A stretch of 64,000 nt of DNA from the IMG/VR virus record IMGVR_UViG_3300033150_000619; one strand, given 5' to 3'. Positions 8,798 to 61,298 of the stretch are shown here, piece after piece. Made by a program: the position numbers and the translations under genes. This stretch comes from a virus. Lineage: Duplodnaviria; Heunggongvirae; Uroviricota; Caudoviricetes. The notes beneath the pieces were generated by a model that worked only from the letters and a program-made list of their open reading frames with translations, was not told the DNA's origin and did no database searches. The stretch's first letter is position 1. Each line of letters begins with the position of its first letter.

Positions 8798-10650
8798 GGG
8801 GGATCACCGAACTTTACCTGCTTCATTATCAGTTGATCCTGATGTCTCTTAAAGTCTTCATAGGTAACCGGGTAGTTCATAGCCAGATGCTTGAGTTTAA
8901 CGTTGGTGTCTACCTTTATCTTGAATCCTGATTCTCTAACTTTAGAACAGTTATGTACAGTGATAGATTCTGCGACGTACGACTCTGCTCCATCAACGCT
9001 AATGTTATACACTGGTCCTATATACCGTTGTCTATGTATAGCTCGGATGGGAATCCAGAATCCTCCTTGTGTGCTCAATGAGTCTCCTATTCTCAAATGA
9101 TCAACCTCTCGAATCATACTTGTTTTACCCTTTAACCTTCCACTTATTCCAGTAAGGGCATTGAACCTATCTTGCATCTGGGACGGTATTTGGATTACAT
9201 ATCTGTAATTATCATAGGACTTGATAGAAGGCAATATACCAGTTCTTAATAACACATACTTTAATTGTCTTGATAGGAGTGGAGACGTTGTAACAGCAGA
9301 TTGGTAGTGTCCATCTCCTTTGAAGTATCCTGTTAATATATATCCTATCTGGTCTGATGAGAGAGAGTTAATGAATCTGGGTAGTCTCTTAAGGCTAGCT
9401 CCCTTCCCGAATAGATTAGTAAACAACCTAGCCATTATCTTGGAGTTTATGTACACCTTAGTAGCGGAGTCATCTTCTGATACATGCACATCTATACCTA
9501 TATCTTCCATGGTATTCTTTGTATGATCTATCATATTGTGTTCAGAAGATCCAAAACAGAAGTATACTTGGTGTTGTGTTGAGTACCCTTCTGCTATATA
9601 GTAGCCCATGGTTTCTAAGACGGAGTCTGTTAAGTCTATTCTATTTGGGATGTGATTATGTCTTGCTCTATTATAGTACCACCCATTGTTACTTCTACTT
9701 AATTGATTGGTGGAGATATAATGCGGCAGATAGATTGAAGACAGATGTCTACGATTATCTACATATTTAGGAATGAATACCCTATCACTTCTATTGATAT
9801 ATTTTGCTATCTTCCACTTATTCTTTAGATGTACATTAGCTGACTCTATAGATTGTACTAGTACTGGATGATTGCCAGTTAACCATACCGTGTTGTCATA
9901 ATACGGTTCTATTCCAATGAGGTACCCATTGTATGGTCTAGACATGACATCTGTGACAGTAGAGAGATTACCTCTATGTGTAAGTACTCTATCTCCTATC
10001 TTCAGCATCTCAATTGGAGACAGTGTATCTCCTAATATTAGTGTACCAGGGGGTACACAGAAGGAGTAGTCTTCGGAGAACTCTGTAAACTCAAATGGTG
10101 GGAACTCTATCTCTTGGAATACATCCCTGCGTATGAGTACAAATCCCATACCTATTCCGTCTACGTAATATGGTTGTCCATCCTTCCATTGGATTAGGTG
10201 AGTATATCCTTCTTGATTATCTAAGTTCTTGACCTTGAGTGACATTAACGGATGGTAGGGGGGACCCTTCTGGAAATATAAGCCTGAGACTATAGGTTCA
10301 TTATGGAGCCACAGTCTCATCAATGCATCAGGTTCAGGTATGCAGTCATCATCCCAGAATAGTATATGTGTTGCATTGGGAGCCTTTACTAGAAAGTCAG
10401 CTACCAGTGCATTCCTAGCCTTATCCAGTGGTATCATGTTTGTTGAATGGAAGTAATGTTTAGGCTTAATTAATCTGATATAGGAGTTCATTAACTCTAT
10501 AGATATTATACCTTCACTGGGCATAGCAATGAATATCTCCCCATCCATAACTTCTTCATCAAGGTGCTGGTGCTGATTGCTCTTTAGGGATGCTGGCTCT
10601 CCCTTTATCTGATTGGCTAGTTCCTTCAATTTATCACTCATTATCTTCAC
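8794..10650 (-). CDS. GT-A fold (GT2-like) glycosyltransferase with intein
   Basis: IFIAMP, ARNALV, FWDDD, VSGLY, DGIGMGFVLI, SEDYSF|C motifs. Spliced extein approx. 248 aa. Confidence 0.85.
   Translation of the reverse strand: MKIMSDKLKELANQIKGEPASLKSNQHQHLDEEVMDGEIFIAMPSEGIISIELMNSYIRLIKPKHYFHSTNMIPLDKARNALVADFLVKAPNATHILFWDDDCIPEPDALMRLWLHNEPIVSGLYFQKGPPYHPLMSLKVKNLDNQEGYTHLIQWKDGQPYYVDGIGMGFVLIRRDVFQEIEFPPFEFTEFSEDYSFCVPPGTLILGDTLSPIEMLKIGDRVLTHRGNLSTVTDVMSRPYNGYLIGIEPYYDNTVWLTGNHPVLVQSIESANVHLKNKWKIAKYINRSDRVFIPKYVDNRRHLSSIYLPHYISTNQLSRSNNGWYYNRARHNHIPNRIDLTDSVLETMGYYIAEGYSTQHQVYFCFGSSEHNMIDHTKNTMEDIGIDVHVSEDDSATKVYINSKIMARLFTNLFGKGASLKRLPRFINSLSSDQIGYILTGYFKGDGHYQSAVTTSPLLSRQLKYVLLRTGILPSIKSYDNYRYVIQIPSQMQDRFNALTGISGRLKGKTSMIREVDHLRIGDSLSTQGGFWIPIRAIHRQRYIGPVYNISVDGAESYVAESITVHNCSKVRESGFKIKVDTNVKLKHLAMNYPVTYEDFKRHQDQLIMKQVKFGDPP
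8950..10059 (-). mobile_element. Intein (370 aa) with LAGLIDADG endonuclease, both catalytic residues intact
   Basis: Starts CVPPGT, LTGNHP block B, YIAEG and FKGDG motifs, ends ITVHN followed by Cys. Confidence 0.92.
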
Positions 10651-13347: not shown

Positions 13348-15461
13348 TCTAGTAACCTTCTATAGACGTTGATGTACTTCTTTTGTATCTTGTCCCACGT
13401 ATATCTCTTGGCTGTCTTACGTGCCTCTAGTCCCATCTTCTTGACTTCATTGGGGTTGTCATAGAAGTAATTCATATGTGTAAGTAATGTCTCAGCATCT
13501 CTAGGTTCAAACAGTAGCCCAGACTTTCCATCCTTAATCAGTTCTGATGCTCCTACACCCTTAGATGCTATGACAGGTCTGCCAGCAGCCATAGCCTCTA
13601 GTAGAGGGATTCCGAATCCTTCTGTGACTGAATTACCAGATAGAGCAATTATTCCATTGCGTTCTACGAATAAGTTATGGTTTTGAGTTTGTACGCACCA
13701 CACTATACCATTATAGCTTGATGTAGATATATGCTTATCACATTTTAATGATCCTTTGTTGTGCAATTGTCTTATAGATATCATCCAATATTGGCTTGGT
13801 CCTATGCATTGCCCAGTCTTATTTATAATATGACCGTTGTTGAATCTTCTCCAGAATCTGGGGGAATAACCCATCTTCAGGCACAATTGTATTAAATCAT
13901 CTCTTAATTGATCTGATACTGTATAGTATAATACGTGATTCCCGGATACACTGCTGCCTCCCTTCATTATACCGTCGTAGAGTTCCTTTAGCAGTCTTGT
14001 GGAATATTGTAAACACCAATCTGGTATTTTCTTATTATGACTATCACTGCCACACTTTTCTAATATTTCAGTAAGGCGAACGGAATATACCTTAATACAT
14101 CCATTGTCTCTAGTGGGATGCAATCCTATATCTTTAACTAGATCAGATATTTCACCTAAGTTAACTTCGTCTTGGTTAGCGAAATGTACGAATCTGTTGC
14201 CCTTAATGTCTTGAATGTACCCCTTTGCTATATACCATCCAATTAAACGCAATAATGATGGTAGATATAATTTATCTGGTAGGTCCCTTACTCTATATTG
14301 GGGTGGATATTCTTGATTACACAGATCAGAAGTATTGATATAGTTGCAGTCCGTTCCGTCCCATAACCCAGTTGTTGGGATATAATACCTAGTTGTTTTG
14401 TTTAAGAACCATATCGCCTCCCTGGTTCTTAGGATATCTCGTTGTTTGGGAGTATAGTAATACATTCGGTGATTAGGTGTTACAGATAAATTGAATTGAT
14501 TACTGGTGAAGTTAATCATTTGACCCACGTAGGGGTTTATGTAGATCTTTTCTATTGGATTAAGTTCTAACTTGTTATTGTTTAATGTCCACACTAGATC
14601 ACCTATTTCTACATCCCATATAGATTTAATACCAGTGGCGGTAAGGAGGTTGGAGTCTTCTGAATAACAGGGTTGTACGTATACTGACATGTCGTTATAG
14701 AAGTTCCACTTGTTATCTATGAATCCTCTTAGGTGTATATCTGCATGTGGATTAGCGTTCTCTACAGCAGACTTCCACTTTGATAGGGAGTTACTGTGCT
14801 TCCCGGCAAAGTGGAGTTCACCGTCATCATGTACAAAGGCTCCCCATGCCATCATCAGGTACTTTAATCCTTTATCGGGTCCAATAGCACCCATATATCC
14901 TACCTTAAAATCATCTGGTGGTTCTACGTATTCTGGTATATATGTACCGTGTCTAATTACCTTAACATTCTTAGCTCCTATATCATTAAGGATATGTTTC
15001 TTAGACATTCTAGAAGCAGACAGTACAATATCTGCCTCTCTAATGTGTTTGGTATATAACTTGTATAGGAAGGGATTAACCATATGGTTGAAGGGATACA
15101 TACCATAGACAGCATTCCATTCCTGTATACTCTCCTTTCTATTATGTGCGGGACAGTCTACTACTATCTTACACTCAGGGTTGATTTTGTGTATCTCTTC
15201 TATAGTCCTGCCGAATGGATCACCATTGAAGTGAGCTAGGTCAAACTTATTGCCTCTTTCCCTTACTATCTGTGAAGCTATGTAATCTATAAAGAAGGGG
15301 TTAGATGGTACATTGTATGCAGGACATCCTATTAGGTTGGCATCTACCACCTTAACGTCATCAAAGTACCTTGATTGAGCCTTTAGCTCATTAGTTACTA
15401 CAGCACTAGCGCCTGCCGTTCTGGCTATAATCTCAGTGGTGCAGATAAACCCAGTTACCAT
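13344..15461 (-). CDS. GT4 glycosyltransferase with intein
   Basis: YVQP|SVTEGFGIPLLEAMAAGRPVI after splicing; KGLKYL motif. Confidence 0.9.
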   Translation of the reverse strand: MVTGFICTTEIIARTAGASAVVTNELKAQSRYFDDVKVVDANLIGCPAYNVPSNPFFIDYIASQIVRERGNKFDLAHFNGDPFGRTIEEIHKINPECKIVVDCPAHNRKESIQEWNAVYGMYPFNHMVNPFLYKLYTKHIREADIVLSASRMSKKHILNDIGAKNVKVIRHGTYIPEYVEPPDDFKVGYMGAIGPDKGLKYLMMAWGAFVHDDGELHFAGKHSNSLSKWKSAVENANPHADIHLRGFIDNKWNFYNDMSVYVQPCYSEDSNLLTATGIKSIWDVEIGDLVWTLNNNKLELNPIEKIYINPYVGQMINFTSNQFNLSVTPNHRMYYYTPKQRDILRTREAIWFLNKTTRYYIPTTGLWDGTDCNYINTSDLCNQEYPPQYRVRDLPDKLYLPSLLRLIGWYIAKGYIQDIKGNRFVHFANQDEVNLGEISDLVKDIGLHPTRDNGCIKVYSVRLTEILEKCGSDSHNKKIPDWCLQYSTRLLKELYDGIMKGGSSVSGNHVLYYTVSDQLRDDLIQLCLKMGYSPRFWRRFNNGHIINKTGQCIGPSQYWMISIRQLHNKGSLKCDKHISTSSYNGIVWCVQTQNHNLFVERNGIIALSGNSVTEGFGIPLLEAMAAGRPVIASKGVGASELIKDGKSGLLFEPRDAETLLTHMNYFYDNPNEVKKMGLEARKTAKRYTWDKIQKKYINVYRRLLE
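13632..14669 (-). mobile_element. Intein (346 aa); both LAGLIDADG acidic residues substituted
   Basis: Starts CYSEDS, VTPNHR, ends LSGN followed by Ser. YIAKG (AAG at 14223-14225) and MKGGS (GGC at 13956-13958). Confidence 0.9.
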
Positions 15462-16477: not shown

Positions 16478-16506
16478 TATATTTCATGTTATTTGTTATG
16501 TACAAT

Positions 16507-16526: not shown

Positions 16527-16562
16527 CCTAGGGCACTTTAGATATTACAGAGGGAGAGACCT

Positions 16563-18245: not shown

Positions 18246-18250
18246 TAGAG

Positions 18251-18590: not shown

Positions 18591-18595
18591 AACAA

Positions 18596-41358: not shown

Positions 41359-43131
41359 TTAAATCTGGGGTGGACGAAAGGCAGGTATTATGCCGGGTAG
41401 TATCTTAAACGTCCCTATATGGGAACACTTTATTGTAGTATCTACTATGACCTTGTACTTACCTTCAGCCTTAGCCTTGAGTAGGAAATAGAAGTCCTCA
41501 CTATTATGTACCGTAATTCCATTAAGGACATAACTTCCACTTGAAGGAACATTAAGATCATAGACCTTTCCACTGTAAGGAATAATGTCTATGTTATTGA
41601 TTCTAAACCAGTATTTATTATCATAGATAAATGGTATACTCCCTTCCCATTTAGTATTCTTTGGTTTGATATCTATACCTAGCAGATTGGATAACATGTA
41701 AGAACTCCTACATAGTTTAGTTCTATAAATATCATTACCCGCTCCAAAGGCACCCGACGGTTGCTTATATACAGAGATTCGTGGCATATATCCCATTTTC
41801 AATAGTAGTGAGAATGATTGTATAGCTAAGTTACGGGATGCAGTTGTTACTACTAACTCAGGATATCCATCTCCTGTGTACGCTAAGCGTCCATCACCAT
41901 GCCATAATCCTTTGTAGGTTTGTTCAGCCATAATCTTAGAACCAGTTAATATCCAACCAGGTAATTTCTTATTAGACGCATCTGTATTAAACCAGCTACT
42001 AAACACTATAGATAATGGCTTGTTGTGTATTACTACTGTTGTAGAATGGTCTCTATAATTAATACTGGGTTCCAAGCTCAGGGTGTCTAATATTATATTA
42101 GAAGTAGTATTAGCCAGTTGTTGTTCTTTCTCACTTATACCAAAGGAGAATCTAATTCTACCACGTTTTGGTTCCGAGCTTCCTTTAGCCGCATACAACC
42201 CAAGAAGATACATAAGGTCGTTTGATATCTCTAGTTCAGTATTTATCGTAGACTTCCTTGATCTAAAGAATAGTTTATCTCCTTCTTTCCGAAGTAAAGG
42301 AGAGTATAATGACACTCTATTGATATCCTTAGATGCCAATATTGGAGAAGAGATAAAGTCACCCTTAGTTAATCTACCTGCTCTCAACCACACCGGGGTA
42401 AAGTCTTGTAGTGTCAGTATCCTATGGTTGGGAGTTGTTTCTATTGGTATCTTCATTATACTTGGTGTGATACGTATGATGTTCCCATCATAGTTAAATG
42501 AGTAATTGTGTTGTACATGAGATAAGAAACCATTACCATCAATTATCTTATGACCTGTGGCTACATCTTCTATATTATTTCCCATGAGTAATGAATGTCC
42601 AGGTGGAATGCACGGAGCATACTTAATATCCCATCTGAACCAGGGTCTCTCTATCTTGTCAAAGACTTCTGTCTTAACTAAACAACAACCAAGTCCAGTA
42701 ACATCGACTTCCACGAGATCAGCAGTCCATTTCCTAATGTTCCTAAATCCTGTTTCTTTATCCTTGAAAGTCCACATAGCCCAGGGATTACCTATCTTCT
42801 TAGTTCTATACAGTCCAGATACTATTGGAAGGTCACGCTTGTACAGCTTATACAGTAGCTTATTGATATCCCCTGGTATCTCTGCTATAATATCACTGTC
42901 TACATAGAAGATATAGTCTGCTCCCCATTCTAATGCTTGGGCAGTAACGTCTTCTCTGGCTATATCTATTGGTGGTCCTCTACAAAGGAATGGATGTTTG
43001 ATACACCATGTAGACTTTGTAAATATTAGAGGTCCCCATGTATTATGTGCCCACTCCATGTTTACTGTGCCTGTATGAGGAACGCACACAGCTATCTTAG
43101 GTAGGGTATCTCTATTTATATCCCATGCCAT
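41359..43131 (-). CDS. GT-A fold (GT2-like) glycosyltransferase with intein
   Basis: IAVCVPH, DIARE, YVDSD, VSGLY, DVTGLGCCLV, spliced KYAP|SEDFYF. Confidence 0.88.
   Translation of the reverse strand: MAWDINRDTLPKIAVCVPHTGTVNMEWAHNTWGPLIFTKSTWCIKHPFLCRGPPIDIAREDVTAQALEWGADYIFYVDSDIIAEIPGDINKLLYKLYKRDLPIVSGLYRTKKIGNPWAMWTFKDKETGFRNIRKWTADLVEVDVTGLGCCLVKTEVFDKIERPWFRWDIKYAPCIPPGHSLLMGNNIEDVATGHKIIDGNGFLSHVQHNYSFNYDGNIIRITPSIMKIPIETTPNHRILTLQDFTPVWLRAGRLTKGDFISSPILASKDINRVSLYSPLLRKEGDKLFFRSRKSTINTELEISNDLMYLLGLYAAKGSSEPKRGRIRFSFGISEKEQQLANTTSNIILDTLSLEPSINYRDHSTTVVIHNKPLSIVFSSWFNTDASNKKLPGWILTGSKIMAEQTYKGLWHGDGRLAYTGDGYPELVVTTASRNLAIQSFSLLLKMGYMPRISVYKQPSGAFGAGNDIYRTKLCRSSYMLSNLLGIDIKPKNTKWEGSIPFIYDNKYWFRINNIDIIPYSGKVYDLNVPSSGSYVLNGITVHNSEDFYFLLKAKAEGKYKVIVDTTIKCSHIGTFKILPGIIPAFRPPQI
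41503..42612 (-). mobile_element. Intein (370 aa); first LAGLIDADG acidic residue replaced by Lys
   Basis: Starts CIPPGH, TTPNHR, ends ITVHN followed by Ser. YAAKG (AAA at 42184-42186). WHGDG intact. Confidence 0.9.
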
Positions 43132-45519: not shown

Positions 45520-45870
45520 TTACTGTGGGACTACGTATGATGTCTTCTTATCTATACAGTAATTGGAAGTACCATTACGCATACAACAAGAACAGCATAT
45601 TCCTTCAGAGTGTAATGGACACGGTACTGCATCTTTAGGTAGAAGTAAGATATAATTCTGGTGACATAGCTTACATCTGAACACTTCATACATTGCTAGG
45701 TTCAGCTTCACTGTGGCTCCACTGGGATGTTTTATACGTAGTTCATCTTGGGGCTTAGTATATCCAAACTTATCAATGACAGCCTGTGGAAGACGAGCAT
45801 CCTTTCCAACTCTTATGGCTCTAATCTTAGTGTTTGACACCGAGTCCCCTTTTGTACTTTCTTCTGGCAA
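45520..45870 (-). CDS. Cys-rich Zn-finger-like protein
   Basis: CKLC, CPLH, CCSCC, YC. Annotated start overlaps the terminase end by 44 nt. Confidence 0.55.
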   Translation of the reverse strand: MPEESTKGDSVSNTKIRAIRVGKDARLPQAVIDKFGYTKPQDELRIKHPSGATVKLNLAMYEVFRCKLCHQNYILLLPKDAVPCPLHSEGICCSCCMRNGTSNYCIDKKTSYVVPQ

Positions 45871-48800
45871 AGTAGTAATCTCCTACAAAGTTCTTAGGTT
45901 GCTGCCACGTCAACATCTGCAAACAGTCGCACAAGTGGTCATCTTTCTTGGTGTCTAATCTATAGGCTATCAACTCTTTGAGTAAAGTCTCAAATCCCAT
46001 GTAAATAGCTATCTTACGTTGCTCTAATAGGACTCTAAGTCTCTCCTGCATACGAGACTTAAGTGCCCTAAACACTATTTCTTCAACTAACCAGCCCTTC
46101 TGCTTTATTCTATAGTTCTCTTGACTGTGACTGCTATTATGAACTTTAGGGAATCCTAGACCACATACGAATGATCCTCCTTCGGTTTCAACGTCGTATA
46201 CATATCCATTATAGGGTAAGTTTCTAACATACTGTACTTCGCGTACATTTGGTTCATTTGCTGTTCTATTCCATGTGAGGTTATAGGCTTCCCCACCATA
46301 AGATTCTCCTATAGAAAAGGACGGATGATAGACTTCACCAGGTGGTTTCTCTACATACATCTTCAGATACAGTATTCCCTGTAATAGAGTTTCGTATCCT
46401 TCTGCTACTTTCCATGAGCTTCCCCTAGGTTCATTACCATCATAATAACCTGCTAAGAAGGAAGATACTACTTCTCTCGATCCATTGAAGATAAACTCTG
46501 GTACCTTCTTTAGTCCATTCTTAGAATAACAATGGCGTAGCAGATAGTTTATCATAGCGTATCTTCTGTACCTGAGAGAATATGTTCCATCACCTACGCT
46601 TTGTTCCATACCCATATCTGGCAATATACCGGCAACCCTATCCAATAGGGACTTATCAGAACTACTAAATGTTACAGCACCGTCAGCAATGCATCCATTA
46701 GCAGAAAAGAATCCCAATACCCACGCAAGATCTCTACTTATAGATGAGAACGACCTGTCCTTCCTTGGAAACGGAAGGTTATTAGGAGAACAACATACTA
46801 GCTTTCCTTCAGTCTCTGATATGGGCAAATAGTTGTGGCTCCGGTACATTGCTACTGGGTGATTGGGAGTGGCATCAAGTATACTGTTAACAGTTCTCAT
46901 TCTGGATATAGGTCCTGTATATGGATGTCTGCTAATGTACTTTATTCTATCAAACTTATTCCCATATCCCAGTATTTCAACTCCTGATAATGGAATAACT
47001 TCCTTATCTACTCCGGTAAAGTTGGCTATATCTTCAAAGGGTAAGATATCTACCCTATCATTCTTTCTAATAACACAGGGAACATAGCCAGGTATACTGT
47101 CTGCCCTTATACAAGAAACGTTGTATCTCTTAGCTACGTTATCTATTTCTCTCTGCATCCATGGTCCAGTCCTCTGTGGATATTCCGTAGCGTAGAGTAC
47201 TGTGTATTTACTATCCAATGGATTGTCAGCATCTACCTCAACTTCAGCAACTAGTATTGCAGCTGGTGAGGGACCAAACCCCCAGTCTACAGCCATATAT
47301 ATCGGATTCTTACCGGTTGGTATGGGCATATCATGCAGTCTAGATGCTCTAATAGATGCTACATCGAATAGGGTGCTTGTTAGTTCAGGTAGCTCTGCTT
47401 CCCATACTGTCTTAAACTCGTCTGCACTCATTATCTTACGCGCCATGTTGATTTGTGATTCATCTATCCATGGTATGTTTGATAGTGAACTGTAGTGTAT
47501 CTTGGTCCATTCATCCCTGGGGTACTGTATATCATTAGTCCATATATCTACAAAGTTAGACACGTAACATAATGGATCATCTACGAAGTGCCCAGAGATG
47601 ATTATACGATTGGGCTTAAACGCGCCTACAACTCTCGGGGCGTGCATCAGGACTTTATCTCCTGCTTGTGCTGCCTCGTCTATAATGAACATATTTGAAT
47701 TACCAGACCAGCAGACTTTGCCCTTTCTACGAACCAATAGTAAGTCATGAGGTACATCTACACAATAGACCATTCCTTTGTAGTTGTATATTCTATCCTG
47801 TTGATCTCTGACATTAAATAGAGGCGTTAATGCTCTCTTCTTAATGGAGACTCGATAGTGAACATCCGATAGGTGTTCCCTGCCATTAGATATCTTGGGT
47901 TCTATTGTCATAACATCTGCTGTCCACCCAGCCTTAATTGATAGTATCTGTAGATCATCGCTCATTTGTTTAGAAGATGTAGTTAATGTAGTATGATTAC
48001 TCTTATTAGTCCATCCACCACCCATTTCATATGTTTCTAGGAACAGCTGTATTAACTCCGGTGTCATGTCATGTATCTCTTTAGGTACAAACTTAGACTT
48101 ACAGGTACCAAACTGTCTTAGATATTCTCTTAGTTGTGGATCTGAGAAGTAGAATTGAGACCCGTCATAAGATGGTTTATATCCTAAATCCTGTATCATT
48201 TGTTCTATCATAGAGCATTGATGTGGATGAACTTCCCTGGATTGCGTGATTCTTATCTGGGTGTTTGTGACGTGTCCCTCTGCTAAGAACCAAGCCATTA
48301 ACTTAACGTATAGTTCTGGTGATAGGACTCTTTCTTTGTATTCTTTATCATAAGACGCATAGTGAGAGGTGTACTGGGGGATAACGACCGGATTATTGTG
48401 TCCTCTCCATTTAGCATCTTTCTTGAATTCGACTTGTTTACCCACGACATCCTTAGCTTTAACTAACTTAAACTTCTCTGATTTGTCATTATACCAGTTC
48501 TCTCTGACATACAGATTATGATCTTGTGTTACATTGATGTTTAGATGAGATGTTGAGAGATTATACATGGGACCATCATAGAATTTGCGTACTATGCCTG
48601 TTGACTTTTCGAATATCATGTATCCGTTGTCTAGAGAAGCGAATGATTCTGTACCGTCTACATCAGTAAATCTCTTCCACCCGTTGATAGTGTAAACCTC
48701 AGTTTCTTCATCATAACAATGTAAGTTATACAGCTGTGTATCAGACGATGGTATAGGAGCTACCCATGAGTTATCTTTGAAGCGTACTTCTGACTTCAAT

Positions 48801-50053
48801 GGCTCTCCCTTTATCCAGTCATTGAGGACATCACTTCTGTTACAGAACTCCATAACATATTCATAAGTTCTCTTAGCCTGTGCAAGCCCACCAGCTGCTA
48901 TTGCTGTAGTGAAGGGTTTCCCAGTGATTGGTGGAATACATACAGAATGCCATAAGGCTGCCGCAGCTAAACTATAGGTATTGTGTGTGGGGATTAAGGA
49001 TTCCCCAACAAGAAACATACCGTCTTCCCTATCTACCTTAATACACCTAGTGGGAACACTATCTACCGGATTAACTTCTATTATGTACCTATTGTTATGA
49101 GTTCCTCTGAAGTTGTCTCTCCTTTGATTATCCAGCTTCTTTTTCAGGTTGAATGCCTTAATGTCCGTTAGGAACTTTAATCGGTACTTCTTAGAAGTGG
49201 ACTTACAGATGCTGGTTTTGATACCTAATGACACAATGAGTCTATAAACATCTCTTGCTAATTGATGACTAGTAGTAGTATACTCGCAGTCATTATCAGC
49301 ATATCCGCCGGAATCCATTAAACCACGTAAGAGCTCTTCACGCTGTTCGATAGAAGCCATTAGATAACCTTCTGGTATTCTCTTATTATTGAGTATGCCC
49401 ATCTCTTTGAGTAAACTGGTAGATATACCATTCAGTCTTCCTTTGAGTTTGGTTAGCTCATAACCCCTGCTTTCTACTTCCTGTATTCCATCACCTAACC
49501 ATAATCCTAGAGTATATGGGTCAACAGGTAAATTGTTGTGTGGTAATATTAGTGGTTTACATACCTCGATAGAATGATTTATTTGATTACCGACTGTAAG
49601 GGTATCATGTATTTCTTGGGTATTCCTTATACTTCCAGGAGCCGAGTTCTTTCTTTCTTTGGCTGTCATAGTTCTCCATAAATGATCACTAGACGCTACA
49701 ATCTTACTACCATCACTAAATACGACTTCGTAACACGGATAATCAAATTCAATATCTGATACGAAGGTAACAGTAGTAAGTCTACCATCAGGACCAAATA
49801 CTTGATCTCCAACCATAAGATCGATAAGTGTTCTAAACCCATCAGCTGTCAATATCGGCGTATCAATGGCAATCAACTTTCCCCCACCGGTACCTCCAAC
49901 AACTATGAGCTTAGTCTTATTGAGATCCTTACACCAATTGAGTATCTCTATTTGATGACCAAATGGATCGTTACCAGTAACGTCCTTAAAGAATGATACC
50001 GGGTCATTCTGCCATCTCTTAATGGTGATAGCACGACTCAATAACTGACTCAT
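45827..50053 (-). CDS. terL: Terminase large subunit with three inteins
   Basis: Spliced Walker A GGTGGGK|T, Walker B LH|SNMFIIDEAA, nuclease MAVDWG, IRAD|SS and KDDH..DCL. Extein approx. 448 aa. Confidence 0.95.
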   Translation of the reverse strand: MSQLLSRAITIKRWQNDPVSFFKDVTGNDPFGHQIEILNWCKDLNKTKLIVVGGTGGGKLIAIDTPILTADGFRTLIDLMVGDQVFGPDGRLTTVTFVSDIEFDYPCYEVVFSDGSKIVASSDHLWRTMTAKERKNSAPGSIRNTQEIHDTLTVGNQINHSIEVCKPLILPHNNLPVDPYTLGLWLGDGIQEVESRGYELTKLKGRLNGISTSLLKEMGILNNKRIPEGYLMASIEQREELLRGLMDSGGYADNDCEYTTTSHQLARDVYRLIVSLGIKTSICKSTSKKYRLKFLTDIKAFNLKKKLDNQRRDNFRGTHNNRYIIEVNPVDSVPTRCIKVDREDGMFLVGESLIPTHNTYSLAAAALWHSVCIPPITGKPFTTAIAAGGLAQAKRTYEYVMEFCNRSDVLNDWIKGEPLKSEVRFKDNSWVAPIPSSDTQLYNLHCYDEETEVYTINGWKRFTDVDGTESFASLDNGYMIFEKSTGIVRKFYDGPMYNLSTSHLNINVTQDHNLYVRENWYNDKSEKFKLVKAKDVVGKQVEFKKDAKWRGHNNPVVIPQYTSHYASYDKEYKERVLSPELYVKLMAWFLAEGHVTNTQIRITQSREVHPHQCSMIEQMIQDLGYKPSYDGSQFYFSDPQLREYLRQFGTCKSKFVPKEIHDMTPELIQLFLETYEMGGGWTNKSNHTTLTTSSKQMSDDLQILSIKAGWTADVMTIEPKISNGREHLSDVHYRVSIKKRALTPLFNVRDQQDRIYNYKGMVYCVDVPHDLLLVRRKGKVCWSGNSNMFIIDEAAQAGDKVLMHAPRVVGAFKPNRIIISGHFVDDPLCYVSNFVDIWTNDIQYPRDEWTKIHYSSLSNIPWIDESQINMARKIMSADEFKTVWEAELPELTSTLFDVASIRASRLHDMPIPTGKNPIYMAVDWGFGPSPAAILVAEVEVDADNPLDSKYTVLYATEYPQRTGPWMQREIDNVAKRYNVSCIRADSIPGYVPCVIRKNDRVDILPFEDIANFTGVDKEVIPLSGVEILGYGNKFDRIKYISRHPYTGPISRMRTVNSILDATPNHPVAMYRSHNYLPISETEGKLVCCSPNNLPFPRKDRSFSSISRDLAWVLGFFSANGCIADGAVTFSSSDKSLLDRVAGILPDMGMEQSVGDGTYSLRYRRYAMINYLLRHCYSKNGLKKVPEFIFNGSREVVSSFLAGYYDGNEPRGSSWKVAEGYETLLQGILYLKMYVEKPPGEVYHPSFSIGESYGGEAYNLTWNRTANEPNVREVQYVRNLPYNGYVYDVETEGGSFVCGLGFPKVHNSSHSQENYRIKQKGWLVEEIVFRALKSRMQERLRVLLEQRKIAIYMGFETLLKELIAYRLDTKKDDHLCDCLQMLTWQQPKNFVGDYYFARRKYKRGLGVKH
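46136..47098 (-). mobile_element. TerL intein 3 (321 aa); both LAGLIDADG acidic residues replaced by Asn
   Basis: Starts SIPGYV, ATPNHP, ends KVHN followed by Ser. FSANG (AAT 46697-46699) and YDGNE (AAT 46433-46435). Confidence 0.9.
47699..48718 (-). mobile_element. TerL intein 2 (340 aa); second LAGLIDADG Asp replaced by Gly
   Basis: Starts CYDEET, VTQDHN, ends WSGN followed by Ser. FLAEG intact. EMGGG (GGT 48017-48019). Confidence 0.9.
48980..49876 (-). mobile_element. TerL intein 1 (299 aa), class 3 type with Leu at position 1; second LAGLIDADG Asp replaced by Gly
   Basis: GK|LIAIDTP start, DHLW (Trp), TRCI (Cys), IPTHN|T (Thr) form the WCT triplet. WLGDG intact. MDSGG (GGC 49307-49309). 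Confidence 0.88.
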
Positions 50054-52056: not shown

Positions 52057-54060
52057 TTATATTACTACTTCATCAGGGCTGGGTCTGTCTTTAACGTATC
52101 TTAGAGCATTTCGTAGCTTCTGTCCATAATAATCATAGTTAGTAAACTCTAAGTCAACAGCTGTCTGTTCCTCTATCTCTATCTCTGGATCAGGTCTTAT
52201 GCCTGTAACGGACGTCTCGTCACAGGTATGGATGAAGAGTAGGAAGCCTGATGGTCTCTGGCTGATTGTCTTCTCCCATATCTGAAATCCACCACAAACG
52301 TTGAAGGTAAGACCCTCTAAGTATAGACGAGGTTGCAACCAATGAGTGTTATGTAGTAATGTCATTCCCTTAGCATCAAAGAACATTGGATTACCCATAA
52401 CTTCTAGGTCGTAAACCATACCATCATAATCAAAGTATTCTATATTCTTAATGGGAGAAGTATAGAAGTTACCGCAGTCCTCTATCTGGGTCTTATTAAT
52501 TAGTTTAATCCATCTACCCCTGTAATGATCAGTTCTATTAGAGTCCCTGGTGAATTTAGTGAACTGTTTATCTGAAGTTTGCATCTTGATCAGAGTTAAA
52601 ACACCATCAAATAGTTGAGACGATGAAGATCCCCACCGATATGAACTACTTGACTTGTCACCATCTCCGCAGTAATAACCATCTAGGAAGGCACTTCTAA
52701 CTTCTGTGGGTGAATTGAATATTGCAGTAGGTACTTTCTTGTTCTTTGCTCCCTTTGAACATAAGTTAGTTACACGACTAAATACTGGTTCGGAGTATAC
52801 CTGTAGTTGATATAATCCATCTTTAGTTAAGGTTATACTACGTCCAGATTTGAACTTAGGTGGATTATGAACTTGGTAGTAGTCTCGCACTCGCTCTATC
52901 CACTTTCTATTGCTATTAGAGAATCCTATTGAATAAGTAGATGATGGACCGTCCTTGTAAAAGGAACTCCATCCATCTGCGCAATAAAACCCAAGTATCC
53001 ATGCTTCTTCTACTGAAATAGAAGTATCAACATTTGTAGTAGGTACATGCTTAAGGTGAATTAACCTATCACCTATTTCCAGATCCCTACCCTTCTTTAC
53101 GATCATTTCATTATTCTCGTATACAAAGACAGATTGTCCAGTTGTTACTTCAATCTCACCACACTCAGAAGTAGCTCTAATCATTGTTCCTTGATACGGA
53201 TGAAAGTACAGATAGGCATCTTCCCACTTAGTGGTACCTTGATCAATTACAATGGTTTGGAACACTGGGGGAGCATCTTCAATAGGAACCAGCTTAATTT
53301 GATTGTTGTCTCTAATAACAACATTCCTATAACCTGGGATACTGTGCCCCACGCAGACTTCCTCTATCTGTACTCCTTTAGCCTTGTATTGGTTAAATGC
53401 CTTCCAGCAATCTCTAATCATCTCATATGAAACTGGGTAGTAGGCACTTTTCCCTGAACCATGAGTAAACAACACATTATAATTACCTATGGGGTAAGCT
53501 ATGTTCAGTACCTTATAGTGACCTGCATACCACGTATCATCTAGATAGTTGGTCAGGTATATCATGTAATTATCTGCTATATCTTCGTGATTGCCCTTAA
53601 TGATAAATGTCTTCCTTATTGGTTCTATCTCAGCTATAGACTTCTTGAGTTCTCTGATCACCTGCGCTGCTATTTCAGTTTGCCAATGTCCTCTCTGTAC
53701 CAGGTTCCTGAACTGCTGGTACCTGAATACATCCTTACCCGCAACTAAGTCGCCATTAAGAACCATTATGAAGTTAACAATATCAAACTTCTCTGATAAC
53801 TTAGATACTACGCTCTTAGTGTTCTCTACGCAGGACCAGAATGTCTTGGGGAGATGGTTGGAGTCTCCAAGATGGGTGTCAGATACTACAAGTGTCAGTG
53901 TAGCCTTCTTCCTCTCTGCATCTCCGATAACAGATATGGGAAGTGTTATATTGATATCTTCCCTATTGACAGGCTCATATTCTACAGGTCTGCCGCTATC
54001 TATCTTGATCCTAAGTTCTTCTTCTTCATCAACAGGCTCTAAGTTAATTTCACTAACCAA
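52057..54060 (-). CDS. Calcineurin-like metallophosphoesterase with intein
   Basis: SDTHLG, NGDLV, KGNHE, THG, spliced GH|TH. Confidence 0.88.
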   Translation of the reverse strand: MVSEINLEPVDEEEELRIKIDSGRPVEYEPVNREDINITLPISVIGDAERKKATLTLVVSDTHLGDSNHLPKTFWSCVENTKSVVSKLSEKFDIVNFIMVLNGDLVAGKDVFRYQQFRNLVQRGHWQTEIAAQVIRELKKSIAEIEPIRKTFIIKGNHEDIADNYMIYLTNYLDDTWYAGHYKVLNIAYPIGNYNVLFTHGSGKSAYYPVSYEMIRDCWKAFNQYKAKGVQIEEVCVGHSIPGYRNVVIRDNNQIKLVPIEDAPPVFQTIVIDQGTTKWEDAYLYFHPYQGTMIRATSECGEIEVTTGQSVFVYENNEMIVKKGRDLEIGDRLIHLKHVPTTNVDTSISVEEAWILGFYCADGWSSFYKDGPSSTYSIGFSNSNRKWIERVRDYYQVHNPPKFKSGRSITLTKDGLYQLQVYSEPVFSRVTNLCSKGAKNKKVPTAIFNSPTEVRSAFLDGYYCGDGDKSSSSYRWGSSSSQLFDGVLTLIKMQTSDKQFTKFTRDSNRTDHYRGRWIKLINKTQIEDCGNFYTSPIKNIEYFDYDGMVYDLEVMGNPMFFDAKGMTLLHNTHWLQPRLYLEGLTFNVCGGFQIWEKTISQRPSGFLLFIHTCDETSVTGIRPDPEIEIEEQTAVDLEFTNYDYYGQKLRNALRYVKDRPSPDEVVI
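52348..53343 (-). mobile_element. Intein (332 aa), LAGLIDADG motifs intact
   Basis: Starts SIPGYR, VTTGQS block B, YCADG and YCGDG, ends LLHN followed by Thr. Confidence 0.88.
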
Positions 54061-55613: not shown

Positions 55614-55918
55614 TTCTCCCTTCGCTCCTCTACTCTCTTTCTTAATCTTTCTATTATTTCACTAGGTAAGAGGTACTCTCTACCTATAAGGCTATATAGA
55701 TACTTAATGTCCTTTTCTAGTCTTAGCTCCTTTCCGCCGTCGCCACAGGGTATATCTACAGACATCATCGCTAGTTGGTGTATATGGAGCTCCTCTTTGT
55801 AGTGCTTAATCATTTCTTCAATATGTTCTAACTGAGATACTGCTACAGACACCCTACGACTGGTCAATGAACTTACTCCCTCTCCTCTTACCCTTGATAG
55901 GTTTCTTAGACAGATCAT
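55610..55918 (-). CDS. Hypothetical protein
   Basis: 102-aa ORF, coupled to the GT4 gene. Confidence 0.5.
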   Translation of the reverse strand: MICLRNLSRVRGEGVSSLTSRRVSVAVSQLEHIEEMIKHYKEELHIHQLAMMSVDIPCGDGGKELRLEKDIKYLYSLIGREYLLPSEIIERLRKRVEERREN

Positions 55919-56378: not shown

Positions 56379-56624
56379 TTACATTAATACCTCCTCTCTC
56401 TAACTAATGCCTTTAGTTTCTCAGACAGCCTATATAACCTTAAGTTATGCATATACTCTATCTCACTTACCTTAACAGAGTTTTCTCTACAGTAGCGCAC
56501 TAAGAAGGACAATCCCCGTTTACTAATTGGTAAGTAGTCCATACGCATGTTTAACAACCATAACCGTATTGCCTACTACTGTTTTCTTTATACGCCATAC
56601 CAATCCTCCATAGAGTCTCCTTCC

Positions 56625-59600
56625 TTAATGCTTATGGTTGCCCCCAAAGAAATGAGTTAGTTTCCCCTCGTCTGGAATAGAAAAAGGTTCTATTGGTATC
56701 TTATAAGACTCATTGACTAACGATAGGAATCTATCTATGGTTGGTTGTAGCTGTCTCTTCACTATTACTTCCCTGTCTGGTTCGAATCCACTTGGAATCT
56801 TAGTATCCTTAGTAAAGGCTATCACATCAGTTTCTGGATAAGAATCCGGTGAAATTACATATGCCCACATAGGCTTGTCTCCTCTCCTATATCTTGTCCC
56901 TAAGTTCTCATTAGAGTATATACTGGCTCTTACATGTGCCACGGGTGTCTTGTATTCCTTTAGACTCTTCTTAAGTTGTTTAGGTGATCCTACCTCATAT
57001 ATAGAGAGCTCCTTATTCATCAATCTCTTCTTAAGGTTCTTCAGGTAGTCTCTCCTATATTTGGAGTCCTTGCCATCTACCAGGCTCTTACCTAAGACAT
57101 TGTACATATCCATGACGATATCACTGACATCTGTCCTAACCGCAGCTGATCCTTTCCACATATAGGTTGTTCTATACTGTCCCTTACTCCATATCACCTT
57201 ACCGAGATAATTCTTCTTACTCCATATGGCTAGTGCTGCAAATACTGTCTCCATATCCATTTTGATACTGTTGTCAGTAATGGTGGGGTAGTCCTTCTCT
57301 ATCATTTCTGCAATAGCCTTGTTGATTTCATCAGCAATGTGTAATCCTTCTTTAACTAAGTCTCCTTCGAAATCTTCTCCTAGAGCAACGAAGATCGAGT
57401 CTGTATTATGTAATAGTACATTACCTATCCCTCCACTGAAATGATGAGAGTGAGTCTCTATATCATAAACATAGTCATGCGTAGTAAACACCCTTATCCT
57501 TGTTATTTCATCTGGAGGAGTCTTACCATGTTCTACATATCTAATACGTAGCACATCTGGTTTATCATCCCTTATACTCAATGTATACTCTTGTCCTATA
57601 TCATTGAGAATATGAGTTATACCAGCTATGAGGCACTTATCTGTTAAGCATATGCTGGTCTCTGTCTTACTATTGTAACCGTCACCAATCCATAATCCTT
57701 CCAGTAGCTCTCTCTTCTTATTTGAGTTTAATACAAAGGATGGTATCAACTTATGATTCTCCTTACTATGACACCAGTGTTGGAATAGTAGTGTTAACTC
57801 CTTACTGTTGGACACAGGTACTAATCTCTTCATACCCACAGGGCAGTTGGTATCAATTATCTTAGTATCAAAGCCTAGCTTACTCTTCAGTATCTCCTGA
57901 GCCCTGAGTAGAGCATCTATATGTTTAGACTGTGCAATATACCAGCTGTATTTGATACCATGCTTACCGTGATGAACAGAACTGGAACCATCTGCTAGAT
58001 AGAATCCTATCAACCACGCTATATCACCATCTATGGCATGATTGCCTAAGCTTCGGTATTCTACTATGTCTATCCTATCTCCCACTGATAGGCTACTAGG
58101 CTTTACTTCTTTGCCACCTATCATAAGAGAATGATCTTCTGTACATTCTACGTATCCACGTCCTGTTAATATCCCGTAGACATTCTTATTGACCCTATGC
58201 TTGAATACATGTTTAGCCTTAGTCCATCCATTCTCATCAAGTACTTCAATGTCATCAATAGAATAGTGAGTTCTAGTATTGGTATTTGATGCAGAGCTAA
58301 AGTCCTCTATAGGTACATAACTCATGATACCATTCTTCCTACTCAGTATAGGAGTATCTCTCATTACACTATCTCCGTAGATAACATCATACCCCATATC
58401 ACGGGCTTTATCTATTGCAAACTTCAGTAGGTTCCTAGCCATATTAGTACATGCTTCACCCACGCCAGGTTTGAATAACCTAAATCCTGGTCTTCCCATG
58501 ACACCGTATGCAGACTGTCCGGTCCAATGATAGACATTATTTCTACCAGCCATTATCGTATGATTATCTCGTGCAGTGATACAATACACATAACCATCTT
58601 CAGACTTGGTTCTATAGTAATGACCCTTCTTTATACAGGGATTAACTCCTCTGTGCTTCTTTATAGATACAGTGTAGCAGTCATCAGGTCTACTATAAGT
58701 AGCATTATATCCACACTTCAACGCTACAAAGGTAAGAGATTCTGCTAACTCTATAGATGCAGTCCTATACTCGTATTCATTAGCTCTACCATTACTTAGC
58801 ATTAAGGTATCTACGAAAGGAGTTAGATAACTTTCATCTAGGGAAGAAACAATACTACCTATTTTCTTAGTCCTAGAATCCCTACCGAAGTTATCAACTA
58901 GGAAATTGTAGAGAAGAGTGTTGCAGAAGGAGAAGCCCTTCCTGTTATCAAAATAGTAAGGGATATTCATTCTCTTTAACAGAGACTCTATACTACGTTG
59001 ACTCTCCTTGTCTACTTGGGTAATAGTAATCCTGTGAGTGACACCTCGTACATTGCCGTTGTCGTGTTCCTTCCTCTTACTAACGTAAGCACTTCCTTTA
59101 GCAATGTACCATGCTATTAGTTCTAACATATCATTAATGTCAAAATATCTAGGGAACCATTTAGATTGTCTTATGTCTTCCTTGAAGGCGTTGCCCTCTA
59201 TCTTTAGATTTATACTCCGGGTGTTATACTTCGTTAAATCTATGATGTCCTCTATCTTTAGACCGGGGAACTTAACTTTAGGGGCTAAGTGTACTCTACT
59301 ATAGCCCATTATATCCTGAACCTTCATATGGTCATAAGATATATTGTTTCTATTCCTGCCGTTAATCTTCCCATCTCTTAATTGTACAAGGAAGTTATGG
59401 TTGGGGGTGACTACAAAGTCTAGATTCTCTTGTTTGATTCCTATAAGCTCATCTTCATACAGATATCTATGGAGATGCGTAACTGGTTTAGTCTCAACCT
59501 CCATAGTATCCTTATTTAGGGTATAGACCATATCACCTACTTTCATATCTTTAATATTTATGAAACCGGTTGGTGTCATTACGTAGTGATCGCCGGTAAA

Positions 59601-61298
59601 GCAGTTGACTACTGACTTAAAGGCAGCATCCTGTTTAGTGTAGATATCTATTTCAGACTGTGTCTTTGCTTCCCTGATAAGCCTCTTAGTCTCAGCCCTA
59701 CGCTTCATTAACTCCTTTAGGATTTCTACTATGATAGATCTCTTAGTAGAATCTATGTAATATTTAACCTCCCTCTGTTTAACAACAGTCTTAGGATTCC
59801 CGTTTTTAGTGTACTCGTAGACGGGGAGGTTGTTTACATATCGTATGTTACCATCCTTGTCTCTCTCATAGACGTAATCCTTGGTGTTATGTATGCCTTG
59901 GATTATTATATCCGATTGAGACTCTGCTATAGCTGTAAGCATATGAGAGCTACACGCTTCTGCCTGATCTATTACGTCTACTAAACTCTCTTGTCCTATG
60001 TTGAACGTAATGAAGATATTGGGATACAGAGAATCAAAGTCTATGACTAAGACATTATGATATACACCAGGTATCGGTTCCTCGACATAAGCTCCGACAA
60101 ATCCGGAGCCCTCACTACTGCCATGTGTCTTAGTTGGCAGTATATACTTACCCTCAAGGAGTCTCATGATATATACGTCAAAGACTGTGGTCTTATAGAG
60201 AATATCATCATATGTAACTCCTATCAGCTTTCTTATCTCATCTAGGTATGTTACGAGGTCCTGCTCTAATTCTATCTCCAGGACGCAGTCTAAGTCTCTC
60301 TTATTATATCTCAGTATCTTAAACTTGTCAGTTGCCCATACTTCATTGTAAGAGCCCTCTAACTCCATCTTACCTTTTCCGTGACCAAGAATTCTATTAA
60401 CATAATCTAAGCTATGACGCCTGAGTTCCTTTCCCATGAGGAACCTTGACACTTCGTAGATATCTATAATATCTCTGCCTTGGATCTTGAATTTGTCTTT
60501 CCTACCAACACTGAGAACCCCTAGTGGGGACATACGACCTGGATCTAGATCCATATGTCTACATCTCCACATAATCTTCTGCAGGTCGTAGTCCTTAATG
60601 TTGAATCCCATTATAATATCTGGGTCCTTATCTTCCATTAGAGACAGGAAGTACTCCAGCATGTATCTCTCGCTTTTGAATGGGATATACGTAGCATTCT
60701 TCTCTTTGGTGACTACGTCTTCACCAACATACAGTATACTGTACTTTTTGTCATAGGAGTCGTAGATACCAATGCATATGATAGGTTCATAGCTACTAAC
60801 CTCAATCTTCTGCTCCTCGCTTAGGACTAAAGCCTCAATGTCTATTATCCAATACCTGGGCTTAACATAGAAATCATCAATTGGCTTTAGTACATTATTA
60901 TCATACTCTACTGCAAACTTGATACCAGAGTCTATCAAGTATCTATTAACGTAGGGAATGTCTGCTTCCCATGTCTTAATGCCGTTATTGTGTAATAGAT
61001 TCCTGATTGGAGGACAGTCGCCCGGTTGAATGATATGGATTCGTGCTAGCGGCTCTCCAGTTAAGTAATCTTTCTCCTCTCCAATGCTAAACCCCTTGAT
61101 ACGAGTAAGGAGCCTATTCCCAATAACAGACTCTATCCCCTTAAGGTCCCTTTGTCTAATATAGAAGTAGGGCTCCGCCTTGAATGAGTAATGCTCTCTC
61201 CTCTTATCTTCAGACCTTACGTATAAATGAACATATGAGTCAGTCTTTCCTACGTTCTTGTAGGATATTGATGTCAATACACCCTTCATTTCTCTCAC
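56625..61298 (-). CDS. polB: Family B DNA polymerase with two inteins
   Basis: Exo DIE, FN...YD, YN..D; Pol DFDSLYPN, K...N|SAYG, YGD|TDS, K.Y. Extein approx. 872 aa. Confidence 0.96.
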   Translation of the reverse strand: MREMKGVLTSISYKNVGKTDSYVHLYVRSEDKRREHYSFKAEPYFYIRQRDLKGIESVIGNRLLTRIKGFSIGEEKDYLTGEPLARIHIIQPGDCPPIRNLLHNNGIKTWEADIPYVNRYLIDSGIKFAVEYDNNVLKPIDDFYVKPRYWIIDIEALVLSEEQKIEVSSYEPIICIGIYDSYDKKYSILYVGEDVVTKEKNATYIPFKSERYMLEYFLSLMEDKDPDIIMGFNIKDYDLQKIMWRCRHMDLDPGRMSPLGVLSVGRKDKFKIQGRDIIDIYEVSRFLMGKELRRHSLDYVNRILGHGKGKMELEGSYNEVWATDKFKILRYNKRDLDCVLEIELEQDLVTYLDEIRKLIGVTYDDILYKTTVFDVYIMRLLEGKYILPTKTHGSSEGSGFVGAYVEEPIPGVYHNVLVIDFDSLYPNIFITFNIGQESLVDVIDQAEACSSHMLTAIAESQSDIIIQGIHNTKDYVYERDKDGNIRYVNNLPVYEYTKNGNPKTVVKQREVKYYIDSTKRSIIVEILKELMKRRAETKRLIREAKTQSEIDIYTKQDAAFKSVVNCFTGDHYVMTPTGFINIKDMKVGDMVYTLNKDTMEVETKPVTHLHRYLYEDELIGIKQENLDFVVTPNHNFLVQLRDGKINGRNRNNISYDHMKVQDIMGYSRVHLAPKVKFPGLKIEDIIDLTKYNTRSINLKIEGNAFKEDIRQSKWFPRYFDINDMLELIAWYIAKGSAYVSKRKEHDNGNVRGVTHRITITQVDKESQRSIESLLKRMNIPYYFDNRKGFSFCNTLLYNFLVDNFGRDSRTKKIGSIVSSLDESYLTPFVDTLMLSNGRANEYEYRTASIELAESLTFVALKCGYNATYSRPDDCYTVSIKKHRGVNPCIKKGHYYRTKSEDGYVYCITARDNHTIMAGRNNVYHWTGQSAYGVMGRPGFRLFKPGVGEACTNMARNLLKFAIDKARDMGYDVIYGDSVMRDTPILSRKNGIMSYVPIEDFSSASNTNTRTHYSIDDIEVLDENGWTKAKHVFKHRVNKNVYGILTGRGYVECTEDHSLMIGGKEVKPSSLSVGDRIDIVEYRSLGNHAIDGDIAWLIGFYLADGSSSVHHGKHGIKYSWYIAQSKHIDALLRAQEILKSKLGFDTKIIDTNCPVGMKRLVPVSNSKELTLLFQHWCHSKENHKLIPSFVLNSNKKRELLEGLWIGDGYNSKTETSICLTDKCLIAGITHILNDIGQEYTLSIRDDKPDVLRIRYVEHGKTPPDEITRIRVFTTHDYVYDIETHSHHFSGGIGNVLLHNTDSIFVALGEDFEGDLVKEGLHIADEINKAIAEMIEKDYPTITDNSIKMDMETVFAALAIWSKKNYLGKVIWSKGQYRTTYMWKGSAAVRTDVSDIVMDMYNVLGKSLVDGKDSKYRRDYLKNLKKRLMNKELSIYEVGSPKQLKKSLKEYKTPVAHVRASIYSNENLGTRYRRGDKPMWAYVISPDSYPETDVIAFTKDTKIPSGFEPDREVIVKRQLQPTIDRFLSLVNESYKIPIEPFSIPDEGKLTHFFGGNHKH
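57405..58370 (-). mobile_element. PolB intein at YGD|TDS (322 aa), LAGLIDADG motifs intact
   Basis: Starts SVMRDTP, CTEDHS, YLADG and WIGDG, ends LLHN followed by Thr. Confidence 0.92.
58515..59603 (-). mobile_element. PolB intein at KxxxN|SxYG (363 aa) ending in Gln; both LAGLIDADG acidic residues substituted
   Basis: Starts CFTGDH, VTPNHN, ends WTGQ followed by Ser. YIAKG (AAA 59097-59099) and MLSNG (AAT 58791-58793). Confidence 0.9.

Follow-up and report, generated by a model that had tools for sequence, protein, structure and literature searches.

Nine of the twenty catalytic acidic residues in the ten inteins of a viral genome segment are replaced by Lys, Asn or Gly, and we are inclined to regard these inteins as having entered the degeneration phase of the homing cycle; the virus lineage would be one rich in long-resident inteins. 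The window (the whole stretch of DNA analysed, 64,000 nucleotides) derives from a hydrothermal-vent virus, probably with an archaeal host, and its inteins are spread over seven genes (Table 1). Asp or Glu is found in both block C and block E in I1, I3, I8 and I10, but not in I2, I4, I5, I6, I7 and I9. A preliminary description of this DNA had named the same nine codons and the same four intact inteins, and both lists were confirmed. In a profile alignment the catalytic positions correspond to PI-SceI D218/D326 and to blocks C and E of TliVMA. Five more inteins lie outside the window, with acids altered at 4/10 sites. Altogether 9 of 15 inteins are affected, while the other six, like a free-standing LAGLIDADG gene, are intact; six inteins carry no hit, five carry one and four carry two.

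The inserts are in-frame and show the features of LAGLIDADG/DOD inteins, with HINT blocks A, B, F and G and a Cys, Ser or Thr at +1. Variants are the initial Leu of I5 (class 3), the C-terminal Gln of I9 and a His-to-Gln change in block B of I8. [quoted passage not shown] The predicted structure of I9 contains a complete HINT and LAGLIDADG fold (pLDDT 91.6) and matches PI-PkoII, TliVMA, PhoVMA and PI-SceI (E 5e-17 to 3e-11). The earlier statement that full-length domains are kept does not quite hold for I5, where short deletions were found in the endonuclease domain by comparison with five homologs, including parts of the stretch that follows block C. Precise restoration of the host gene is seen at the DNA level at two sites: strain L004 carries an exact empty allele at I8, and in strain L003 the identical junction of I5 is occupied by an unrelated, intact intein. 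An empty allele at an intact intein and a rival intein at an altered site show the turnover of a homing cycle. Altered inteins also adjoin intact ones within multi-intein genes, the terminase holding three inteins and the family B DNA polymerase (PolB) two.

Table 1. Inteins of the window and their altered catalytic codons.
Feature	Coordinates	Strand	Remarks
I1, 370 aa, GT-A-like glycosyltransferase	8950..10059	-	both acids intact: E 9589, D 9313
I2, 346 aa, GT4 glycosyltransferase	13632..14669	-	neither acid left
I2 block C Lys (AAG)	14223..14225	-	Glu in homologs; identical in 5 other assemblies
I2 block E Gly (GGC)	13956..13958	-	Asp in homologs; GGC/GGT synonymous variants between strains
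I3, 320 aa, radical SAM/SPASM protein	37605..38564	-	both acids intact: D 38199, E 37926
I4, 370 aa, second GT-A-like protein	41503..42612	-	block C lost; block E Asp retained at 41893
I4 block C Lys (AAA)	42184..42186	-	Glu in homologs; identical in 5 other assemblies
I5, 299 aa, class 3 W-C-T type, in Walker A motif of large terminase	48980..49876	-	block C Asp retained (49490), block E lost
I5 block E Gly (GGC)	49307..49309	-	Asp in most homologs
I6, 340 aa, terminase	47699..48718	-	block C Glu retained (48278), block E lost
I6 block E Gly (GGT; one strain GGC)	48017..48019	-	Asp in most homologs
I7, 321 aa, terminase	46136..47098	-	neither acid left
I7 block C Asn (AAT)	46697..46699	-	ancestor Asp or Glu; change as in PhoVMA, PDB 7qst
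I7 block E Asn (AAT)	46433..46435	-	following two codons Glu-Pro in window only, Gly-Ser in other strains
I8, 332 aa, metallophosphoesterase	52348..53343	-	both acids intact: D 52975, D 52663
I9, 363 aa, ends with Gln, PolB	58515..59603	-	neither acid left
I9 block C Lys (AAA)	59097..59099	-	Glu in 14/16 homologous PolB inteins
I9 block E Asn (AAT)	58791..58793	-	Asp in 15/16 homologous PolB inteins
I10, 322 aa, PolB	57405..58370	-	both acids intact: D 57990, D 57681

All of the 2-6 other assemblies spanning a given site carry the same change, and two of the Gly codons have synonymous variants among strains, so that assembly error is excluded. Recoding or editing is likewise excluded, because restoration would need A-to-G changes for Lys and Asn and the opposite, G-to-A, for Gly. 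The best homolog of every altered intein has both Glu and Asp at the catalytic positions, and the ancestral residues, judged from these alignments, are Glu or Asp; catalytic residues gone here and retained in homologs are the mark of a degenerate endonuclease. The preliminary description had allowed that homologs might share the Lys, Asn or Gly residues as a functional trait of the family, which is excluded among the available homologs. The nearest relatives are 28-44% identical and retain Glu or Asp, and the altered form has no clade-wide conservation, a comparison that is coarse given the gap in relatives between 45% and 97% identity. That gap was found in protein searches for a close outgroup for dN/dS, which yielded no near relative with intact alleles to serve as a neutral clock; scans of PolB, the portal and I2 gave no further relatives. 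Each altered codon had been described as one transition away from its ancestor, but at 46697 the nearest homologs have Glu and the Asn is perhaps two steps off.

The loss of catalytic acids clearly exceeds the background. Sites are altered in 9/20 cases in the window as against 25/824 in 412 top-scoring background inteins (p=1e-8). This background is biased to intact inteins, and two further viral controls were therefore built; a motif-selected target set (0/65) was left out of the comparison. With the outside inteins included, 13/30 sites are altered as against 6/130 in viral inteins chosen by the splicing domain only (p=4e-7), and 9/15 inteins are affected as against 5/65 (p=3e-5). The outside set alone, which had no part in the preliminary description, gives 4/10 against 25/824 (p=2e-4). 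Acid loss is thus about 8 times commoner here than in control viruses. Background inteins lose their acids in the same way, with Lys, Asn or Gly in 17 of 25 cases.

Of 532 strain differences, 493 (93%) are transitions (Ts:Tv 493:39), and with such a bias the probability of 9/9 transitions is 0.50, so the single-transition pattern carries no information. Over the 30 sites of the 15 inteins, 17 codons are unchanged, 12 are one step and 1 is two steps from the ancestor, and a neutral transition model expects 17.6, 10.7 and 1.6 (by hand). The numbers of inteins with zero, one and two hits (6/5/4) compare with 4.8/7.4/2.8 under independent hits (by hand), and single hits are not in excess. All three patterns agree with neutral loss of residues that serve cutting alone. 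Of the earlier assertion that this is not random decay, the site-specific loss with the fold retained stands, but the counts and the spectrum are compatible with neutral loss.

The rest of the endonuclease domain has not decayed to the same degree as its active site, a further doubt raised earlier: other conserved positions deviate in 23/128 cases (18%), as against 35/176 (20%) in the splicing domain. Among strains, pN/pS of the altered endonuclease domains is 0.39 (about 0.20-0.74), and that of exteins and host genes is 0.13-0.15 (p=0.017; small counts). The value is near that of the splicing domain (0.26-0.30) and is not above that of intact domains (0.70). The altered domains may thus be under relaxed yet residual constraint; purifying selection is present, but short of host-gene strength. 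Secondary decay is visible beside the altered sites as Gly-to-Ser and Gly-to-Glu changes, polymorphic among strains. In I2, for example, the codon adjoining the block-E Gly (13953-13955) reads Ser in the window and in a single further assembly, but Gly in the remaining ones. Deletions of 1-4 aa in intein linker regions are also polymorphic. Synonymous diversity relative to the own exteins is 0.31-0.59 in intact inteins and 0.61-1.63 in five of six altered ones (U=21/24, p about 0.03, by hand), and the lower values are expected from a more recent spread of the intact inteins. Among the few assemblies covering altered sites, in which contigs cannot prove absence, no empty allele was seen.

Degeneration within the homing cycle could account for these observations as follows. 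The insertion site would be occupied in nearly all genomes, so that cutting is no longer under selection. The endonuclease must presumably still fold within the precursor for the splicing of essential proteins such as terminase and polymerase, which would constrain structural positions. The two metal-binding acids would belong to the small set of conserved positions that matter for cutting alone, and hence be the first to drift; with the 93% transition bias they would become Lys, Asn or Gly, and later decay would begin beside the dead site. From the biochemistry of PI-SceI and PhoVMA we infer that cutting ability has been lost, and both splicing as the source of constraint and the neutrality of the first hit are likewise presumed. 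Neutral loss accounts for the roughly 8-fold excess only if the inteins are taken to be old and empty targets to be scarce. Since selection was relaxed, roughly 0.2-0.4 transitions would have had to accumulate per site, 10 times the present strain diversity or more, and despite this time the endonuclease domains are no more eroded than the splicing domain. A further point against it is the block-D lysine, kept in 14/14 inteins while acids are changed at 13/30 sites (p=0.003); the equivalent lysine of I-CreI is of little structural importance (PMC3017599). This retention is the sole sign in favour of the repeated selection against cleavage proposed in the preliminary description, and it has an electrostatic alternative. 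Lys-to-Glu in block D is absent from all 412 background inteins, and charge may therefore be what preserves the lysine; with only Lys-to-Arg free the probability of 14/14 retention is about 0.07 (by hand). The use of AAG in all nine block-D Lys codons reflects codon context and is not a special signal, as AAG is found in 61/68 Lys codons before A.

Directional selection for disarmament, in which the first mutation removing a metal ligand sweeps and no new function arises, is a serious possibility, though we hold it to be less probable than loss by drift. With 15 or more endonucleases expressed during a single infection, off-target cleavage of viral or host DNA would add up, and a second hit would be favoured if single mutants still nick. 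Trade-offs between stability and function are general in proteins, and removal of clustered carboxylates at helix ends may instead make the fold stabler at high temperature and help splicing. The 8- to 10-fold excess over three controls, recurring outside the window, would be explained by such selection, as would the retained lysine, the lack of erosion at other conserved positions and the fact that first hits are all fixed and later decay is merely polymorphic. A cost of inteins is documented (7% in Haloferax, as cited in PMC10643990), and models of homing include a parameter for the toxicity of the endonuclease (PMC3229294). On the other side, single-hit inteins are not in excess, six inteins and the free-standing LAGLIDADG gene are still intact, near-matches to homing sites are absent from the window (best 18/24), and the charge explanation of the lysine weakens its weight. 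It is unlikely that the single-hit inteins I4, I5 and I6 are altered rather than dead and remain mobile, as nickases or via co-conversion with intact neighbours. With their two active sites, monomeric LAGLIDADG enzymes can be converted to nickases, but in many LAGLIDADG enzymes a metal ion is common to both sites (PMC3017599). I5 has a low diversity (ratio 0.32, three synonymous differences), as a mobile intein might; however, Lys and Gly are non-conservative and are not family traits among homologs, and both acids are gone in four of the nine affected inteins.

Domestication, by which the altered domains would be kept as sequence-specific DNA-binding or regulatory proteins, possibly acting on the repeated 14-bp palindrome of the genome, seems very improbable. 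The model for such a fate is WhiA/DUF199, a strongly conserved, free-standing protein that combines a domesticated LAGLIDADG fold, devoid of catalytic acids, with an additional HTH domain. The altered domains likewise lack the acids, but they are still parts of inteins, are confined to one lineage and seem to be less constrained. A pN/pS below 1, the intact model fold of I9 and the retained lysine would suit this idea. However, host genes are constrained about three times more strongly than these domains, the splicing domain is constrained at least as strongly, and decay beside the altered sites still segregates. The net positive charge of all six altered domains is 0.8-4.9 per 100 aa as against an active mean of 5.5 (SD 3.9; a weak check). 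I5 lacks parts of the stretch that follows block C and has another intein in its place in one strain, and to assume nine unrelated domestications within a single genome is unparsimonious. The palindrome is unlike any homing site (best 10/14, also a weak check) and was rejected as a dead endonuclease's target; its binder is more simply sought in the product of a ParB-like gene (61347-62192). Repurposing as DNA-binding or regulatory modules, as suggested earlier, thus finds no support, and the combined reading, selected disarmament at the metal ligands with some domains kept as DNA-binding or regulatory proteins spliced from terminase, polymerase and glycosyltransferase precursors, is hardly to be expected.

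Whether homing endonucleases die by drift or by active selection is usually assumed and seldom tested. Here fifteen unrelated inteins share one mutation spectrum and one population history, and with nine disarmed, six intact, an empty allele and a rival intein they form a natural panel in which the toxicity, stability and splicing of native enzymes could be compared with those of revertants. They also warn that annotation of a LAGLIDADG domain need not mean a mobile intein.

The loss of catalytic acids with the fold kept is an already-known ageing stage of such selfish genes, and the type of change is known. PhoVMA of Pyrococcus horikoshii (PDB 7qst) is, like the inteins described here, a full archaeal HINT and LAGLIDADG intein in which the block-C Asp is changed to Asn and the fold and block-D Lys are retained; it does not cleave, binds DNA more weakly and regains activity when the motifs are grafted (PMC8966425). 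However, PhoVMA is one cellular intein with a block-E deletion, whereas nine unrelated inteins of one viral genome are affected here, almost all by single-codon changes. Similarly, most alleles of the yeast VMA1 inteins (PI-SceI/VDE family) are dead, with one or both aspartates (D218/D326) missing, including changes to Asn, and all are still of full length (PMC1508164, PMC5056185). Those alleles occupy one orthologous site across species, while the present case offers many independent sites in one lineage and a strain-level order of events. Hitch-hiking of defunct endonucleases has been described for T4 mobE/I-TevIII (as cited in PMC10643990). The haloarchaeal MCM genes also hold several inteins each, dead beside intact, but the question asked there was whether one intein could degenerate (PMC10643990).

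[quoted passage not shown] The inteins, 299-370 aa each, are contained in seven minus-strand genes. All nine altered codons of the preliminary description were found: Lys at 14223, 42184 and 59097, Asn at 46697, 46433 and 58791, and Gly at 13956, 48017 and 49307. In a profile alignment of the ten inteins, the altered columns correspond to PI-SceI D218 and D326; K301 corresponds to the block-D lysine. Alignment to homologs supports acidic ancestors: for every altered intein, the best homolog carries Glu and Asp, and among homologous PolB inteins Glu is present in 14/16 and Asp in 15/16. At 46697, Glu is found in the homologs but Asp in two sister inteins of the window, which leaves the step count there uncertain. 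Sequence error does not explain the changes, as the same residues occur in all covering assemblies (2-6 per site), drawn from 14 loci of about 96-99% identity that probably represent four or five independent strains. At 13956 and 48017 the Gly codon has synonymous variants among strains, and therefore these two changes are older than the strain radiation. The predicted structure of I9, in which both acids are altered, has a pLDDT of 91.6 and matches PI-PkoII, TliVMA, PhoVMA and PI-SceI; this model rests on alignment and cannot prove folding of the native protein. The observation of altered acids is confirmed and extended.

The window belongs to a tailed virus. The runs carrying it are hydrothermal-vent and marine-sediment metagenomes, and the polymerase type suggests a probable archaeal host. 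A large gene adjoining a radical SAM gene has a repeat tract rich in His, Asp and Trp at 31676-32437, and this region varies in length between strains. The C-terminal residue of I9 is Gln instead of Asn (58515-58517), likewise in at least two PolB homologs (P0002, P0003). The block-B His, invariant among 412 background inteins, is Gln in I8 (53134-53136) and in two other strains.

Coordinates of genes, inteins and repeats in the window and in loci from other assemblies
Feature	Location	Remark
Major capsid gene	window 18596-19705	
Large terminase gene	window 45827-50053	
Portal gene	window 50601-51998	
Family B polymerase gene	window 56625-61298	
ParB-like gene	window 61347-62192	
Radical-SAM activase gene	L004:6646-7854	Starts past window end; C-terminal part is window 63436-63984
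Full inteins outside the window: NrdD (3), DNA methyltransferase, epimerase	L009, L010, L004:1764-3770	Catalytic acids lost in 3/5
Palindrome ACTTAGATCTAAGT, copies	window 1947, 4044, 15817, 30291, 39432, 56133	

Among the 412 non-redundant top-scoring inteins, an acid is lost at 25/824 sites, in 20/412 inteins, and 17 of the 25 losses are to Lys, Asn or Gly. Because such a set favours intact enzymes, two viral controls were built without motif selection: neighbouring inteins in the flanks (loss in 2/20) and inteins recovered only through their C-terminal splicing segment (loss in 5/65 inteins, at 6/130 sites). An independent test set came from outside the window, namely five full inteins belonging to the same virus lineage. 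Two are intact; block C carries Lys in the first ribonucleotide-reductase intein, and the catalytic residues are Tyr and Gly in the methyltransferase intein, with Ser at one catalytic position in the epimerase intein. Together with the window, 13/30 sites (p=4e-7) and 9/15 inteins (p=3e-5) are altered, as tested against the splicing-segment control. Changes of this kind are common in other inteins; it is their frequency in the present virus that stands out. In an NrdD from another assembly (L018, P0143), both catalytic acids are lost in 3/3 scored full inteins, which makes it a second lineage with clustered loss.

In the six altered inteins, conserved endonuclease positions besides the two acids deviate at 23/128, a frequency matching that of the splicing domain (35/176), and therefore the loss is specific to the acids; the corresponding 6/56 of intact inteins is not significantly lower. 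Comparison among strains, based on small counts and non-independent strains, gave a pN/pS of 0.39 for altered endonuclease domains and 0.70 for intact ones; the values are 0.26-0.30 for splicing domains, 0.15 for other genes and 0.13 for exteins. Constraint on the altered domains therefore persists, below that of host genes. Decay is under way beside the dead sites: other strains keep Gly directly after the block-E residue, where some I2 alleles have Ser and the window allele of I7 has Glu. A 4-aa deletion occurs in one I6 allele, and the I5 endonuclease domain is shorter than in its homologs.

The preliminary description had proposed repeated selection against cleavage with the fold retained. 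This reading is supported in part. Site-specific loss and persisting constraint stand. The argument from single transitions fails, because transitions make up 93% of the differences between strains and Asn, Lys or Gly are the only non-synonymous transition products of Asp or Glu. Codons with zero, one and two steps number 17, 12 and 1, where neutral change at 0.23 transitions per site would give 17.6, 10.7 and 1.6; inteins with zero, one and two losses number 6, 5 and 4, where independent hits predict 4.8, 7.4 and 2.8 (both hand calculations), with no excess of single-hit inteins among the 15. We lean slightly towards loss of the acids by drift under fold constraint. Directional selection against an active endonuclease, through toxicity or stability, is an appreciable but lesser possibility: the lack of an excess of single hits speaks against it, and the block-D lysine, kept in 14/14 scorable inteins (p=0.003), speaks for it and resists the neutral model. 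Mutation of this lysine in I-CreI lowers catalysis with little effect on structure (PMC3017599). Lys-to-Glu at block D is absent among the 412 background inteins, so charge may hold the lysine, and the 14/14 test weakens to P about 0.07. An outgroup near enough for a synonymous clock was not found in the collections searched. Drift and selection become testable against each other inside one genome.

Repurposing of the dead domains as DNA-binding or regulatory modules, also proposed, found no positive evidence and is quite improbable: host genes are under stronger constraint, 6/6 altered domains have a net positive charge below the active mean, I5 is replaceable, and none of the homing sites resembles the genome's 14-bp palindrome. 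The latter, ACTTAGATCTAAGT, has six copies in the window, three of them exact (0.04 expected). A free-standing LAGLIDADG ORF of 257 aa in L011, another locus, has both acids and an HTH-like C-terminus.

Turnover within the homing cycle is seen among the strains. The intact I8 has an exact empty allele in one strain, in the metallophosphoesterase gene (L004:17230-18237, junction at the I8 site), and at the junction of the altered I5 another strain carries an unrelated intact intein of 433 aa (L003:10770-12068). At this terminase Walker A junction, the window intein (48980-49876) is class 3 with initial Leu and an altered endonuclease, and that of the other strain is class 1 with initial Ser and an intact one. 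Scaled to the host gene, synonymous diversity in 4/4 intact inteins is below that in 5/6 altered ones (p about 0.03, a weak signal), consistent with intact elements having spread recently and dead ones having long been inherited vertically. The radical-SAM activase gene contains a mini-intein of about 153 aa without endonuclease, which is the cycle's end stage.

No published report of a genome-wide excess of such losses was found in an incomplete literature search. Precedents are known: PhoVMA, which has the same block-C Asn in our alignment, retains an intact solved fold with weaker DNA binding, and its activity is regained by grafting (PMC8966425). Splicing can require the endonuclease domain irrespective of nuclease activity (PMC8966425). 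Yeast VMA endonucleases are mostly dead and without these aspartates (PMC1508164, PMC5056185). In light of PhoVMA and yeast VMA, the present inteins are therefore a new example of a stage already known, and an unusually dense one.
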